Of a stretch of 64,000 bases of DNA, positions 14,161 through 22,601 are shown one piece after another. Every line of letters starts with the position of its first letter. Within the stretch, counting starts at the first letter, position 1. Under the pieces are notes generated by a model. That model ran no database searches, was not told where the DNA came from, and saw nothing but the letters and a program-made list of their open reading frames with translations. The position numbers and the translations under genes are program-made. The stretch is from Polyangiales bacterium (GTDB taxonomy: Bacteria; Myxococcota_A; Polyangia; Polyangiales; Ga0077539): the NCBI GenBank assembly GCA_044229975.1, contig JBGARZ010000008.1, positions 64,001 through 128,000 on the forward strand. The letters are read 5' to 3'.

Positions 14161-14961
14161 TCAGGCGACGGGCGCGGGTTCGGGCGCGGGCTCTCCGGCG
14201 GGCTCGTCGGAGCCGCGCTTGCTGGACCACAGCGGCGGAACCTTCGCGTCGACGTCGCGGAGGCCGAAGCAGACGACACCGGCGACGCGGAGCTGGTCGT
14301 AGCGCTCTTCGAGGAGGCGCAGGAGGCGGTCGCGGTCGAGGCGTTCGGCCTTGCCCAGCGGCGCCGTCGTGACGAAGCCGTTGGTGGGGGTGATGTGCTG
14401 GACGAGCCAGGTTCCCTTGGTGGCCAGGGTGGCGAGCTGCTCGTCGGTGAAGGGGTGACGGTTGGCGAGGGCCGTGGCGCACTCGCGGAAGAGGGCGACG
14501 ATGGCGACGCAGTCGCGGGCCTCGTCGAGCTTGCCGCTGCCTTCACGAATGGCGCACACGCGACCGGCGGGCACGAGGTTGAGCGCGGCGGCGATCTCCA
14601 GATAGGAGAGCGTGAGAGAGCGTAGCGGGCGGACAATGGCGAGGGCCGCGTCGATCTCGCGGGTGGACGGAGGGGCGACAGGCACGCGGTCGGCCGCATG
14701 GACCACAGCGAGCGCGAGCGTGGGGAGCTCGGCGAGGGCGACGACGTCGACGGCGGGGAGCAGGCGGGCGACGGCGGGGAGGCGCGCGGACATGACGGAC
14801 ATCGCGCGGTCGACGTTGTGCCGGAGGATGGCGACGTCGCGGCGGGGCGCGTAGGCGGCCGGGAGGGCGACGGCCTCCGCCACGACGCGGAAGTGGGTGA
14901 AGGCGCGCGCGGCGTCGGTGGTGACGAAGGCGCTGGAGAGGATGGCGGCGAGGTTCTTCAT
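14161..14961 (-). CDS. Hypothetical alpha-helical protein
   Basis: Open frame with coding-like codon use; GGAG upstream of ATG 14961. Confidence 0.7.
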   Translation of the reverse strand: MKNLAAILSSAFVTTDAARAFTHFRVVAEAVALPAAYAPRRDVAILRHNVDRAMSVMSARLPAVARLLPAVDVVALAELPTLALAVVHAADRVPVAPPSTREIDAALAIVRPLRSLTLSYLEIAAALNLVPAGRVCAIREGSGKLDEARDCVAIVALFRECATALANRHPFTDEQLATLATKGTWLVQHITPTNGFVTTAPLGKAERLDRDRLLRLLEERYDQLRVAGVVCFGLRDVDAKVPPLWSSKRGSDEPAGEPAPEPAPVA

Positions 14962-15184
14962 GGTGGACTCCGATGGCGCTCGGGGGGTTGGAGAGGGGAC
15001 CCGATGCGCGGGGTGTCTTCGGAGCGGTGGGTCGGCGGGGTTTCGTGATCGGAGGAGAAAAGTGATGACGCGGAGGTTTAGGGCGCGAGAGCCATGGAAC
15101 GATGACGCACCGCCCCAGGAGGCAACGGGCGACGGGTCGAGAGGTGATTGGCAGGGTGGGGAGGCTACCGGGCGACCTGGCGGA

Positions 15185-15252
15185 GGGTGATGGGCAGGGT
15201 GCAGAGGCAACGGGGCGATGGGGCGATGGGTGATGGGCAGGGTGCAGAGGCA
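15185..15252 (+). repeat. 25-bp direct repeat within a G-rich, roughly heptameric tract
   Basis: GGGTGATGGGCAGGGTGCAGAGGCA at 15185-15209 and 15228-15252. Confidence 0.85.
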
Positions 15253-15354
15253 GCGGGCGACAGCGCGAAGGGGTGATCGGGAGGGTGGGGAGGGTGGGAA
15301 GGATGGATCGGTGGGTTCGTGCGGGTGTGTCGCGCGACGTGATAGATCGCGTTC

Positions 15355-15831
15355 ATGCCCTGGCAGCACGCTCTCTCTCCCAAGCGGACAGCGCTGGTCT
15401 CCGCGGCCCTCCGGCATGTGGATGACGCGACGGCGCTCCTCGCGTCCTCGCCGGTGCAGGCGTTTCACCTCGCGGGATTCGGGCCCGAGTGCGCTCGAAA
15501 GGCTGCGCTGACCGTCCCCGAGGCATCACAGATCGCCCTGGACAAGGCGATCGGCCATGGGTTTCACGATGTCACCGAGCTAGCGCTGGCCATCGCCATT
15601 AACCTCGACCCGCTGGCCTCCCGCTACGAGTTGACGGACTGGCAGACGCGCTTTCCGGCCATGGTGAAGTGGAACGAACAGGCCCGTTACGAAGCGAGTG
15701 ACGGACGATCCCGTCGTGAGGCTGAGGTGGTGCTCCGGGAAGCCGCGGACGCCGTTTCCGACGTTGTCGCCGCACTCTGGGCTGATGGTCGCCTCCCCCC
15801 CTTGAACCATCTCACTCAGGTGCGCCCATGA
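15355..15831 (+). CDS. HEPN-domain-like protein
   Basis: RH..DA..L, HLAGFGPECARKA (matches Y/H-L-x-G-x-x-x-E-C-x-x-K-A), GH, W....RY. Confidence 0.7.
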   Translation: MPWQHALSPKRTALVSAALRHVDDATALLASSPVQAFHLAGFGPECARKAALTVPEASQIALDKAIGHGFHDVTELALAIAINLDPLASRYELTDWQTRFPAMVKWNEQARYEASDGRSRREAEVVLREAADAVSDVVAALWADGRLPPLNHLTQVRP

Positions 15832-17141
15832 CCTTCGATGAGGTTCTTCCGACGCTCCTTCGCGCCGGCGAGGAATGGCCGCACGCGGCGAACCTGAAGC
15901 GGGTCGCGGTCGTGAGAGACCTGCGTGGTCGGGTGCGCGTCGTGGTCGAGCAATTCAAGCGCGACAACGCACAGATCAAGGATCTTACCGCACATCTCAG
16001 GCAAGAGCTGGGTGACTGGTTCGCGGACGACGTGCTCAGTACTTCCGGGGGAACACCCGCGGAGAACAGCGTGGCATCGAAGGTCTTGGACAACGCGAGG
16101 GAACCGGTCACCGTGGGGTATCCGGACGGCGCTGGCGGCATTTCGCCGCTCACGGCGAACAGATGGTGGCTGCTTGAGCGTCGTGTTGGCAAGCAACCCT
16201 GGCTTGAGGGATCTACAACCCCGCCTTGGAGGCTGACGGCAGCCGGACCCTCGACAGTGACTTTCTACTCGTTCAAGGGAGGCGTTGGGCGCACGACGAC
16301 ACTCGCCGCGTGCACGCTGCTTGCCGCGGAGGCTAGCGAGGACGTCGTCGTGATCGATCTCGATCTGGAAGCACCGGGCCTCGCATCTCTATTCGGCATC
16401 ACCTCGAGTCGCGGGGTGTTGGACTTCCTGGTCGATCATGTTGCCACCAGGAGCACAGACATCGGGCAGATCGTTTTCGCACCCACCAACCTCCCTTCGC
16501 GACTCTCAGATCGAATCAAGGTGATTCCAGCCGGCGCGTTGGGGCATGGATATCTGGAGAAGCTCGCTCGCCTCGACTTCGCGAGCAGCACCATCGATCA
16601 GAAAGCTCAGTCGCCCATGCGGGCGGCACTACACGCTCTGCTCCATCAGGTCAGAACGCAGCTCAACCCACGCTGGATCTTCGTCGATGCGCGAGCGGGC
16701 TTGCATGACCTTGCGGGTCTATCGCTGCACGGGCTCGCGCACCTCGATGTGTTGTTCTCGCGAGCCAATCGCCAGGGATATGATGGCCTGGGCATCGTCC
16801 TTCGAGCGTTGTCGCGACAGACGCACAGCAGTGCTGCGCGCGTAGTCTTGGTCCACGCGATGGCCGCAGTGAGCGATGAGGTAGCGGAAACGCAAAACTC
16901 CAGACTCCGCCATGTGGCGTACGAACTCTTCAAGGATCTGGTTTACTCGGCGCGAGGCGTGACGTTTCAGGAAATGGCCCTGGACGGCGACCACTTCCCT
17001 TGGATGATTCGGAGGAACGAGCGCATCGAGCTCAACGACAACCTGAATGATGTGACTGAAGCGCTCGGCAGCCTCGACTATCGGGAGGTCTGGAAGCGGA
17101 TCCGCCTACTGACGACACCGGTAGGGACTGGTGCGCCGTGA
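15828..17141 (+). CDS. ParA/MinD-type ATPase, KGGVGR variant
   Basis: TFYSFKGGVGRTT, IDLDLEAPG, FVDARAG; about 140-aa N-terminal extension with VRDLRGR; ATGA overlap with the HEPN gene. Confidence 0.9.
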   Translation: MTFDEVLPTLLRAGEEWPHAANLKRVAVVRDLRGRVRVVVEQFKRDNAQIKDLTAHLRQELGDWFADDVLSTSGGTPAENSVASKVLDNAREPVTVGYPDGAGGISPLTANRWWLLERRVGKQPWLEGSTTPPWRLTAAGPSTVTFYSFKGGVGRTTTLAACTLLAAEASEDVVVIDLDLEAPGLASLFGITSSRGVLDFLVDHVATRSTDIGQIVFAPTNLPSRLSDRIKVIPAGALGHGYLEKLARLDFASSTIDQKAQSPMRAALHALLHQVRTQLNPRWIFVDARAGLHDLAGLSLHGLAHLDVLFSRANRQGYDGLGIVLRALSRQTHSSAARVVLVHAMAAVSDEVAETQNSRLRHVAYELFKDLVYSARGVTFQEMALDGDHFPWMIRRNERIELNDNLNDVTEALGSLDYREVWKRIRLLTTPVGTGAP

Positions 17142-18595
17142 ACTCCGCTGAAGTACGATCGTCCCGATTGGAGGCACTTGAGAACCTGGGGGACGCAGCG
17201 AGTGCACGAACGTTCCTTCCGCCAAGGACTGCGAAGCGAATTCTCGATCCGTCCGTGGTCGTGCTGTTGGGTGCCAGGGGCAGCGGGAAGACCGCGTTGG
17301 CGAGGCTCCTGGTTGAAGCGATGCCGGGGGCCCCTGACAACAAGTATGAGTTCGTGCGCGCCATTGGGGCACCGCCCAACTTCTGGTTTGACGCGTTCTC
17401 TCAGGCGTCGGCCCATCATCCCGACGCGAGCGTGCTTGATGATTTTGTGCGACGTGCAAGCGATGAAGATCTACGCAACTTCTGGCTAGTCCGTCTTCTG
17501 CTGCGACTGAGCGACAGCGCAGGTCAGATCCCCGGATTTTCCGAGTCGATCAACGAACCGGAAAAGATGGCGAGGGCGATCGAGTATGACCGCTGGGCAG
17601 ACGGGGAGATCAGGAAGAACCTGAATATCGTGATCAACCTGCCCTCTTCGGAGCGGGCGCGACTGATCGCAATGCTTGATCAAGGGGAAAAGGCGATGAC
17701 GTCCGGGTTTGTGACCGCCGTCTATGACGACCTCGACGCCATCGGCAGCTTCGACCCGACGCTCCGCGCTCGCTTCATCCGTGCGCTGCTCGCGATGTGG
17801 TCGAGTCTCTCCACCCGCTACCGGCACATTCGCGCAAAGATCTTCCTCCCCGCAGACCTCTTCGACACGCGGCAGCTCGACACCGTCGACGGCAGCAAGC
17901 TCCTCGCCCGCGCCGAGCGCATGGAGTGGGACGGCCTCTCCCTCTATCGACTCGTGCTCCGTCACCTTGCCCAACAGGGTGAGGACACGCGCGCCTGGCT
18001 CAGTGAGTTCGGCCTACGCTTCGATGACCTCGGCACCGACCTCGGTTGGATGCCCATCGACGTCACCGAAGAGGCCATCGCTCGTTGGCTCGGCACCACG
18101 TTCCACCCGATCATGGACGTCAACGGCACCCGCGACTACGTCCAACACTGGATCCTCCATCGCCTCCGTGACGGTCGCGATCGCGTGTCGCCTCGCACTC
18201 TGCTTGGCTTCTTTTCCGGCGCCGCAAAGGCCGCGCTCCACCGCCTCCCGACCGCCCATCACGGGCAACTGCTCGATACAGTCGACGCTGTCGACGCCAT
18301 CCAGCAGGCCGGATCCGACCGCGTCGCGGAGATTCGCGGCATCTACGAGTGGGTTGATCGACTTGGTGCGCTGCGCGGGCGCGTTGTCCCGCTTCCCCGC
18401 GCCGAGGTGGAGCGACTGATGGCGACCGACCCTGACAACGCTCCGCGCCCAACGGGTACACGCGACGGGCGCACGGTCACCGAAGAGCTGCTCCGGCTCG
18501 GCATGCTGCGTGACCTCCGCGTTGACGACCTGCTCGATGTCCCCGACGTGTTCATCAAGTACTTCGGAGCACTCCGAACCGCTGCCCCCCCATGA
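17138..18595 (+). CDS. Large P-loop ATPase (Sll1717-like)
   Basis: LLGARGSGKT Walker A, AVYDDLD Walker B, KIFL..D, PR.L; GTGA overlap with the ParA-like gene. Confidence 0.8.
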   Translation: MNSAEVRSSRLEALENLGDAASARTFLPPRTAKRILDPSVVVLLGARGSGKTALARLLVEAMPGAPDNKYEFVRAIGAPPNFWFDAFSQASAHHPDASVLDDFVRRASDEDLRNFWLVRLLLRLSDSAGQIPGFSESINEPEKMARAIEYDRWADGEIRKNLNIVINLPSSERARLIAMLDQGEKAMTSGFVTAVYDDLDAIGSFDPTLRARFIRALLAMWSSLSTRYRHIRAKIFLPADLFDTRQLDTVDGSKLLARAERMEWDGLSLYRLVLRHLAQQGEDTRAWLSEFGLRFDDLGTDLGWMPIDVTEEAIARWLGTTFHPIMDVNGTRDYVQHWILHRLRDGRDRVSPRTLLGFFSGAAKAALHRLPTAHHGQLLDTVDAVDAIQQAGSDRVAEIRGIYEWVDRLGALRGRVVPLPRAEVERLMATDPDNAPRPTGTRDGRTVTEELLRLGMLRDLRVDDLLDVPDVFIKYFGALRTAAPP

Positions 18596-19455
18596 CCCCC
18601 GCCCGCGCCGCTGCCGCGCTCTCTGTTGCGATGTTCGTCGCCACAGTTGCCGCCGGCTGGGCCGCCTCCGGCCAACCCTTCTCCCTCCGTTGGTCCCCCT
18701 CCTCCGCGCCCGCCTCCCCCACGCGCCCGCTCGTCCTCCCCGATCGCACCATCCCCGTCGCCACCCTTCGCCTCGGCCACGCCAACTACCAGCGCCACTG
18801 CGCCCACTGCCACGGCCCTTCCGGCGACGGCGCTGGACCCTCTGGCCTCTCGCTCTCCCCTCCCCCTCGCGACTTCCGCCGCGCCGTCTTCAAGTTCGCC
18901 GCCGTCCCCAGCGGCTCGCTCCCACGCGACGCCGACCTCGCCCGCACCATCCGCCACGGCCTCTCCGGCACTGCCATGCCCGCGTGGTCCTTCGGCGATC
19001 GCGAGCTCGACGCGCTCATCCAGTATCTCAAGACCTTCTCCCCCCGCTGGCAGCGCGAGTCCCCTCCCTCCCTTGCCGACCCCGCCACCCCCGCTCCCGC
19101 CCCCGACCCCTGGCGCGCCAACCCCTCCGACGCCGTCGCTGAAGGCGAGCGCGTCTATCACCGCGAGGCCCTCTGCGCGACCTGCCACCCCGCCTACGAC
19201 CCCACCGCCCCCGCACCTTCGCGTCCCGACCCGCTACGCCCCGTCGCCCTCTACGAGCCCGCCCACGCCACCTGGGCGCTCGCGCCCGACTTCCGTCGCC
19301 AACCGATGCGCGCGGGCAACTCCGTCGACGACCTCCACCGCGCCATCGCCTTCGGCCTCGGCGGAACCCCGATGCCCACCTGGCAGGGTTCCCTCCCCGA
19401 CCGCTCGCTATGGGCGCTCGCCTACTACGTTCGCTCCCTCACGCCGCGCGAGTGA
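18592..19455 (+). CDS. Di-heme c-type cytochrome
   Basis: Signal peptide, CAHCH and CATCH, PRDF, GTAMP and GTPMP Met ligands. Confidence 0.9.
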   Translation: MTPARAAAALSVAMFVATVAAGWAASGQPFSLRWSPSSAPASPTRPLVLPDRTIPVATLRLGHANYQRHCAHCHGPSGDGAGPSGLSLSPPPRDFRRAVFKFAAVPSGSLPRDADLARTIRHGLSGTAMPAWSFGDRELDALIQYLKTFSPRWQRESPPSLADPATPAPAPDPWRANPSDAVAEGERVYHREALCATCHPAYDPTAPAPSRPDPLRPVALYEPAHATWALAPDFRRQPMRAGNSVDDLHRAIAFGLGGTPMPTWQGSLPDRSLWALAYYVRSLTPRE

Positions 19456-21221: not shown

Positions 21222-22270
21222 CTACCGCCCCACGTCCCTCCCCAACGCGTGCTCCAGTCGTACGCGCGCCACCCGCCCCTCGCTCGCCACCCGCAGCGTC
21301 GTCGCACGCATGGTCGCCTCCGCCGCGCGCTCGCTCTCCCGCGACGCCGAGACCGACTGCGGGATGCGCAGCAGGTAGTCCGTCAGCGGGATCGACAGCG
21401 TCGCCTGCGTCACGAAGGAGTCCGTCAGAAACGGAATCGCCAACGGAACGCTCACGAATTGCGTCCCCTGCGGAATGGGCCCGGCGCTGACGCCCGGCGC
21501 CGCGACGAGCGTCCCGAGGTTGGCCCGGTCGAGCGGTGACAAACGGTTGTAGCGGGCCGCGAGGTTGAGCCGCGGGAGGTACGCGACCCACGCCTGCTCG
21601 ACACCCGCCGCGGCGGCGGAGAGTTCGTCGCGTCGGGCGCGCAGGTCGAAGCTGGTGCGCGCGGCGGCGGCAGCGACGGCGTCGGCGGTGAGGCCACCGG
21701 GCTGCGCGAGCAGCGACGAGAGGTGCGCGTCGAGGGTGGTGAGCGTGTCCTGCGCGACGGGGTTGTAGACGTCGACGTGGCTGGTGATGTGCTCGACGTG
21801 GAGCTTCGTCTGCGAGTCGATGAGGGTGCCCATCCAGGCGGTTCCGATGGAGCCGCCGACCTCGCGGGTGAGCGCGTAGAGGCCGGTGGCGCCGCCGCGC
21901 TGCGACATCGGCAGGTCGGCGAGGCTCATCACCGTCAGCGGCACGAACACGAAGCCCAGGCCGAAGGCGCGGAGCATCTGCGGGTGGGTGGGGTCCCAGA
22001 AGCTCGCGGTGCCCGTGAGGCTGCCCGACATGAAGAGGCTCGCAGCGACGAGGACGATGCCGAAGCCCACGAGGTAGCGGCCGTCGACCTTTCCCCCCGA
22101 AGCGCCCGATGAGCGGCATGATGAAGATCTGGATGACGCCCGCGGCGAGGAAGATGCGGCCGATCTCCAGCGCCGTGTAGCGCATCACCGCGCCGCAATA
22201 GAGCGAGAAGGCGTAGGCGCCGGAGAAGAGCGCGACGCCGACGAGGAAGTTGATGCCCGTGCCCGCGCCG
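21222..22270 (-). pseudogene. Chimeric relic: DHA2/EmrB transporter C-terminal fragment fused to TolC-family fragments
   Basis: No 5' end; frame change near 22090-22098; GLGFVFVPL and REVGGSIG (DHA2) join near 21720 to A...YLPRLNL.A (TolC N-terminus), then near 21265 to RVRLEHALG (TolC C-terminus). Confidence 0.8.
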
Positions 22271-22599
22271 AGTGGCCCGGCAACGTGCGCGAACTGGAGA
22301 ACACCCTCGCCCGACTGATCGCGCTGGGCGACGGCGGCGAGCTGGGTCTGTCGTCGCTGCCCGTGGTGACAGGCGTTGCGCGCACCCCGACGGTCGCACA
22401 CGACGACGAGCCCGCGGACGAGGTCGCGCGCGCGGCGGGCGATCGGCTGACGCTGCGCGAGCAGGTCGAAGCCTTCGAGCGCGGGATCATCGCCCACACG
22501 CTCCGCACCTGCGGCGGCAACCAGTCCGAGGCGGCGCGGCGGCTGGGGACGAGCCGGGTGACGCTCATCGACAAGATCCACCAATACAAGCTCGGGTGA
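22270..22599 (+). pseudogene. C-terminal fragment of a sigma-54 activator
   Basis: Begins at EWPGNVRELEN and ends in the HTH GNQSEAARRLG.SR.TL; no Walker A or GAFTGA upstream. Confidence 0.85.
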
Positions 22600-22601
22600 G
22601 G

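Follow-up and report, generated by a model that had tools for sequence, protein, structure and literature searches.

Which kind of system is formed by three overlapping genes at positions 15355 to 18595 of a 64,000-nucleotide stretch of DNA (the window) from a Polyangiales bacterium (assembly GCA_044229975.1, contig JBGARZ010000008.1)? An earlier note, made from the letters of the window, had read them as a candidate undescribed defence operon consisting of a HEPN-like protein (gene A), a ParA-type ATPase with a KGGVGR Walker A sequence (gene B), and a second P-loop ATPase (gene C). The operon is an intact member of PDC-M28/HINPO, a catalogued candidate defence system. That it serves in defence against phages or mobile DNA, by means of a HEPN RNase held by gene B and released via the two ATPases, is a reading in which we place even confidence.

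An intact, low-GC member of PDC-M28/HINPO

The three open reading frames (ORFs) are joined by ATGA (A/B) and GTGA (B/C) overlaps, as the earlier note had it, and each gene is present in a single copy in the 10.0-Mb assembly. The operon has a G+C content (GC) of 0.633, whereas the genome averages 0.713 ± 0.024, and so falls in the lowest 1.1% of 4158 genome segments of 2.4 kb; the hand counts from which low GC had been claimed (33, 35, and 46 of 60) were exact. GC at third codon positions (GC3) is 0.72 to 0.76 in the operon genes, compared with 0.88 to 0.94 in four flanking genes. Among 40 relatives of the host, any match to gene B was found in 10 and the three-gene locus in 4, with differing flanks and, in one case, a split gene B. 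In three congeners, synteny starts at the cytochrome c gene downstream of the operon (18614-18628), and the operon is absent there in all three. Because of the low GC and the patchy presence with differing flanks, the operon was likely gained horizontally, in keeping with the earlier proposal. It is real, intact, and conserved.

The PADLOC models PDC-M28A, PDC-M28B, and PDC-M28C match the three genes in order and over most of their length (E-values in Table 1), and they also match four sets of relatives; the call consists of model matches, made without PADLOC's own rule file. The same composition was described as HINPO in a computational study by Li, Burroughs, and Aravind (10.64898/2026.10.19.760177): an upstream HEPN gene, a ConB2-clade ParA, and, following it, an NTPase of the ORC-CDC6/STAND type that is sometimes fused to the ParA. 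(Here and below, statements on cited papers refer to the portions of their text that were accessible.) The operon is therefore not undescribed. The accompanying claim, that no system of such composition has been characterised, held in that no experimental one was found in the literature searched; searches on PDC-M28, KGGVGR, sll1717, and HINPO returned no other relevant paper, with subscription papers poorly covered. We infer that PDC-M28 and HINPO are one system, the accessible HINPO text containing neither PDC nor PADLOC as a term.

A scan of GTDB confirmed at least 579 of 601 candidate stretches, and the counts of loci given here refer to the best 80 of the 579. Among these, the closest relatives belong to Polyangiales and other Myxococcota. 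The order HEPN-ParA-ATPase is conserved: 70 of the 80 loci have a HEPN ORF immediately before gene B, and genes B and C are separate in 28 (Myxococcota, Planctomycetota, Bacillota, and others) and fused into one protein of approximately 890 amino acids in 44 (Cyanobacteriota and Chloroflexota). Three further loci carry a second Walker A. Broken loci, mostly from draft genomes, include HEPN and gene B without gene C (L057, L065, and L079) as well as a partial or absent HEPN with B-C largely retained (L022, L025, L038, L047, and L052). At another locus (L020:5617-7251), genes A and B are fused in frame at a shared 'RD' point, so that the end of A and residues 1 to 28 of the B domain are lost.

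The HEPN protein, its predicted partner domain, and the two ATPases

The structure model of gene A (predicted local distance difference test score [pLDDT], 91.6) adopts a HEPN-T fold, as the motifs had indicated. Its best matches were 1ufb (Z 12.0; root mean square deviation [rmsd], 2.7 over 117 residues) and 2hsb (Z 11.2; rmsd, 3.3 over 122). The top five folds were all HEPN-T (1ufb, 2hsb, sacsin, 4nqf, and 1wol; Z 10.3 to 12.0, with the next row at 7.7), and since Z-scores below about 13 can be commonplace for helical bundles, it matters that Foldseek and Pfam concur. Foldseek ranked the HEPN-T family first, at E > 0.1; PF05168 was matched by 24 of 50 gene A homologues (E ≤ 0.1), and PF18728 weakly by 6 of 50. 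The motifs named by the earlier note are present (E45-x3-K49, H68, and R111-Y112); L28, E45, C46, H68, R111, and Y112 are invariant in all 50 aligned homologues, and K49 is kept in at least 90%. HEPN-T proteins like 2hsb have been proposed to use an alternative catalytic His, located in the stretch that joins helix 2 to helix 3 (Anantharaman et al. 2013, PMC3710099), and H68 sits in the corresponding loop. By its conserved residues, gene A fits the alternative-His HEPN-T type; because of this fold and the invariant H68 at this site, it is likely an RNase. No RNA holder was listed.

Gene A is predicted to bind the N-terminal domain of gene B. The complex of A with residues 1 to 140 of B scored 0.88 (0.88, 0.87, and 0.89), compared with 0.02 for the best of three controls; the partner pLDDT was 81 to 83, and the runs shared at least 80% of their contacts. 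Of 157 solved pairs, 116 reached the mark for the complex score, as did 2 of 215 mismatched ones; these counts apply only roughly to our own alignments. The predicted contacts involve helix 1 and residues 131 to 154 of A and residues 29 to 37, 66 to 89, and 116 to 118 of B, including D31 and R118, which are the sole invariant residues of the B domain. Because A is predicted to bind this domain, the model suggests that the HEPN-B pair is a toxin-antitoxin pair of HEPN-MNT-like type that was captured and came to be controlled by ATPases, and it fits the two-ATPase switch that the earlier note had supposed. A C-terminal [DSN]G motif of A, noticed post hoc, occurs in 24 of 24 three-gene HEPNs and 0 of 44 fused-type ones; this split follows two clades, so that it counts as a single event and lends the interface no independent support.

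The N-terminal domain of B is well modelled, and its order of elements (helix-strand-strand-helix-strand-helix-strand) is compatible with a shortened MNT. Li et al. call the N-terminal domain of the HINPO ParA an inactive Pol-beta nucleotidyltransferase, and the absence of an MNT partner asserted by the earlier note is accordingly probably wrong. The GS and DxD catalytic motifs were found in none of 27 aligned domains, which makes AMPylation unlikely. The domain had no match to MNT or BolA profiles, nothing in Pfam, and no usable match in Atlas, and a small-protein profile search gave 11 matches with no nucleotidyltransferase family among them; fold searches were run on the whole of gene B and were filled by matches to its ParA domain. 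In the fused relatives (L029-L080), the N-terminal 100 residues instead match BolA in a pairwise comparison with 11 BolA sequences (93.7%; E 1.9e-7) and do not match the window-type domain. The window-type domain (27 of 80 loci) and the BolA-like domain (50 of 80) never co-occur.

The remainder of gene B is a ParA-type ATPase, with Foldseek matching Soj (2bej, E 8.6e-10) and the ParA structure 8ray aligning at Z 23.2 (rmsd, 2.9 over 244 residues). The protein scored 144.9 bits against NCBIfam NF047398 (cut-off, 90). The Arg in place of the Walker A Lys and the extra N-terminal domain (approximately 135 residues) reported by the earlier note were both found, and KGGxGR[ST] recurs in 79 of the 80 loci. 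P-loops in which Lys is changed to Arg can behave as slow, ATP-held switches. A role as a partition or division ATPase (ParABS or MinCDE) was considered and rejected: the Walker A is KGGVGR rather than KGGxGK, gene B falls far below the cut-offs of the MinD and ParA family models, and no ParB or MinE family was detected among the 14 flanking window proteins scanned (12 + 2). Gene B bears both marks given for ConB2, namely, a Walker A in which Arg replaces Lys and a PG that follows DxD (10.64898/2026.10.19.760177), and was placed in this clade by these motifs (KGGVGRT and DLDLEAPG) rather than from a ParA-wide tree.

In gene C, the Walker A (GARGSGKT) and Walker B (VYDDLD) are intact, as had been claimed. 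Atlas assigned it to the Sll1717 cluster (score, 0.99), while its matches to NF047389 (the Sll1717 family; 70.1 bits, cut-off 75), PF24389 (25.8 bits, cut-off 27), AAA_16, and nSTAND3 all lie below cut-off, and its PDB matches cover the P-loop only. Its motifs suggest a STAND-like ATPase, a class typical as immune sensors. Some homologues are lengthened (L003:7320-9620, 766 amino acids; L005:1682-4192, 836 amino acids), and the extension in L003 consists of tetratricopeptide repeats (TPRs), giving a full STAND-like layout.

Of 77 gene C sequences, 72 have Arg at position 238; the window copy and the four remaining ones have Pro or Ala. These five exceptions form one branch (Shimodaira-Hasegawa-like approximate likelihood ratio test, 99) in a quick tree of 44 rows, from which 32 fused-type and 4 partial or duplicate rows were excluded. 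From its place after Walker B, we take the family Arg to be possibly a STAND sensor-1 residue. The 37 closest protein clusters have Pro (36) or Ala (1) at this position, and their basic loop is mostly VAVNGTR-like; most of the basic tail is also replaced in the subclade. Decay of gene C is unlikely, given that, among the sequences of these clusters that cover the motifs, all 32 keep Walker A and all 36 keep DDxD. Because the subclade is stable, its changes would point to an altered trigger or altered kinetics. The third codon positions of gene C shift past residue 190 (approximately position 17710), GC3 rising from 0.69 to 0.79 and the share of C from 0.41 to 0.71, towards the preference for C seen in the cytochrome c gene that follows (Fisher p 4e-9, C versus G). 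A similar, weaker shift occurs in three subclade relatives, and either amelioration or recombination (a mosaic gene) could account for it.

Table 1. Features of the operon, with positions in the window
Feature	Position	Strand	Evidence
Gene A, HEPN-T (PF05168-like), 158 aa; PDC-M28A / PA-HEPN1	15355..15831	+	PADLOC E 2.1e-7; fold model; homologue Pfam matches
Conserved HEPN residues E45-C46-x2-K49 (15487-15501), H68 (15556-15558), R111-Y112 (15685-15690)	15487..15690	+	50-sequence alignment
Gene B, N-terminal domain and KGGVGR-type ParA ATPase, 437 aa; PDC-M28B	15828..17141	+	PADLOC E 7.5e-61 over residues 2-413; NCBIfam NF047398
Gene B N-terminal alpha/beta domain (residues 1-135), predicted HEPN-binding	15828..16232	+	Secondary structure, invariant D31/R118, predicted complex
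Gene B ParA/Soj domain (residues 139-430); Walker A KGGVGRT 16275-16295, DLDLEAPG, Walker B FVDARAG	16242..17117	+	Structure match and motifs
Gene C, Sll1717-like ORC-CDC6/STAND-like P-loop ATPase, 485 aa; PDC-M28C; Walker A 17270-17293, Walker B 17720-17737	17138..18595	+	PADLOC E 7.2e-35; motifs
Gene C subclade marks: Pro238 for family Arg (17849-17851); hydrophobic loop for basic MGKGxKKG-type loop (18107-18151)	17849..18151	+	Alignment and tree

The cytochrome c gene, which gene C meets in a further ATGA overlap, was rejected as a fourth member: its orthologue is present in four of seven congeners, and three congeners have no operon gene in the 5 to 10 kb upstream. No match to a sigma-70 promoter was found at the operon, the one terminator-like site was no better than chance, and no conspicuous insertion repeats flank the operon. 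Just upstream lie a minus-strand gene for a 266-amino-acid hypothetical protein and four 43-bp tandem copies (15126-15297; whole region, 14161-15297). Approximately 1 kb of this upstream DNA (14171-15166) is found again on contig C23 at 76% identity, there without the operon. Past the photolyase gene, apparent gene fragments at 21225-22600, comprising a composite minus-strand frame and a lone Fis-type helix-turn-helix, have no matches at the corresponding site of the three congeners.

Proposed toxin release and competing explanations

The mechanism that we favour at even confidence runs as follows. Gene A, the likely RNase toxin, would be kept in check by gene B's N-terminal domain through the predicted interface, and the Walker A Arg would make gene B a slow, ATP-held switch. 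Gene C would sense infection and act on gene B; A would thereby be unleashed, and its cleavage of RNA would lead to dormancy or death. That the PDC-M28 models match all three genes supports the operon's standing as a defence candidate, as the earlier note had ranked it. The agreement with HINPO in gene order, fusion, and ConB2 motifs, the HEPN-T fold with H68 at the proposed site, the predicted A-B complex, the pattern of broken loci (gene C missing, or the HEPN partial or missing), and the low GC with patchy presence also speak for the favoured account.

Several points weigh against release of a toxin as a means of defence. No phage, toxicity, or RNase data for the system were found in the literature. 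As the earlier note had stated, the classical Rx4-6H is absent from the family's conserved positions in the 50-homologue alignment of gene A. The conserved HEPN residues lie outside the listed A-B contacts, and binding is not the same as inhibition; for this reason, control of A by B would have to be allosteric or act via dimer geometry. The complex score may reflect likeness to solved HEPN-MNT complexes such as 5yep, and the nucleotidyltransferase fold reportedly assigned to the B domain by Li et al. was not confirmed here, a profile comparison with 23 MNT sequences giving 0.7%. The STAND-like assignment of gene C comes from motifs only. An antitoxin role for the B domain sits poorly with locus L027, where the HEPN is full length despite some 80 missing residues of the binding domain. 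Finally, the window does not amount to a defence island, and no clear island signal emerged among relatives: PADLOC matches (1e-15) were found for 9 of 134 neighbours and 3 of 52 window genes. Several of the 9 are partial and the 3 are generic domains; our own rough gene calls were used, and the comparison covered 134 of the 139 neighbours of 29 three-gene loci, fused loci being excluded. Because candidates of the embedded type are less often near other systems (Payne et al., 10.1101/2024.01.29.577857), this result neither supports nor excludes defence. One clearly defence-like neighbourhood was seen, a Sorangium locus flanked by a DpdE-like helicase (L008:8877-12488) and a Uma2/PDC-S03 gene (L008:4447-5034).

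Three other accounts compete with, or would modify, toxin release. In the model of Li et al. (10.64898/2026.10.19.760177), gene C senses invader DNA and guides DNA-coating ParA multimers, the main effector, with the N-terminal domain as a nucleotide sensor and the HEPN as a backup suicide effector. The B-C fusions in 44 of 80 loci, the basic motifs on most C proteins that would suit DNA binding, and the survival of B-C where the HEPN is broken all agree with it, but both invariant residues of the N-terminal domain fall in the predicted HEPN interface, and in the window subclade other residues stand in place of the C protein's basic loop and of most of its basic tail; we regard it as rather unlikely here. 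The two models are not mutually exclusive. It is distinctly less probable that the operon is a selfish or stress-responsive toxin-antitoxin-like module, spreading by addiction or causing dormancy without protecting against phage. Against it, a STAND-like ATPase, in L003 with its TPR extension, is typical of immune sensors, and the PDC candidates were defined from cassettes inside BREX, DISARM, or type I restriction-modification (RM) systems; for the selfish module speak the solitary position of the operon among housekeeping genes, the nature of HEPN-T/MNT pairs as classic toxin-antitoxin modules (PMC3710099), and the fact that the PDC systems are predicted, not tested (10.1101/2024.01.29.577857).

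The last account, in which no toxin is released because the HEPN, without being catalytic, serves as an adaptor or binds RNA, or because the C protein of the window has lost its switch activity, seems to us very improbable. The missing Rx4-6H, the lack of catalytic residues in some MNT-associated HEPNs (PMC3710099), and the tolerance in L027 of a HEPN without most of the binding domain are in its favour, as is the Arg238-to-Pro change for an inactive C; yet five polar or reactive residues are invariant in the 50 HEPN homologues, and the complete retention of Walker A and DDxD in the subclade speaks against decay. As to origins, HINPO may go back to an ancient toxin-antitoxin pair of HEPN-MNT type, in which the antitoxin ceased to be catalytic and became coupled to a double switch of ParA and STAND. 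In cyanobacteria and Chloroflexi, a BolA-like domain would later have taken the place of the one that holds the HEPN, and in the myxobacterial-type subclade the STAND sensor would have been retuned from a nucleic acid to a protein trigger; this history is speculative and, in our judgment, unlikely in its entirety.

Comparison with known systems

AbiV, a Lactococcus HEPN RNase (10.1101/2024.05.05.592566), shares a related HEPN fold with gene A (9bj5, Z 6.4), and the weak PF18728 matches of gene A homologues are a further point of likeness; AbiV is a demonstrated RNase and differs in having RNHKSKH, an RNA antitoxin, and no ATPases. The HEPN-MNT pairs (PF05168; HepT/MntA, type VII) have in common with the operon the HEPN-T fold, E-x3-K, the alternative His, and an adjacent gene with a predicted binding domain, reportedly of MNT-like fold. 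They differ in that the partner in the window lacks GS and DxD, is fused to a ParA, and is followed by a second ATPase.

The PDC candidates were drawn from cassettes inside BREX, DISARM, or type I RM systems and are predicted (10.1101/2024.01.29.577857). The three M28 models match the window genes in order, whereas the window copy lies inside none of these systems, and the accessible main text does not name M28. HINPO agrees with the operon in gene order, the extra N-terminal domain of the ParA, the ConB2 marks, the B-C fusions, and hosts of multicellular habit. In contrast, its main text, as far as accessible, gives the N-terminal domain a role in nucleotide sensing rather than HEPN binding and has no BolA term, and the C subclade of the window lacks the family Arg and basic loop. 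The system is widespread yet untested as far as the literature searched reaches, and ParA-type ATPases with a Walker A Arg have recently been proposed as a class of immune switch. With the present analysis, the catalogue entries PDC-M28 and HINPO are linked. The system itself had already been discovered; added here are the BolA-type alternative domain, the gene C subclade, and the predicted HEPN-B interface, which could serve to tell toxin release from the published model of DNA-coating ParA.

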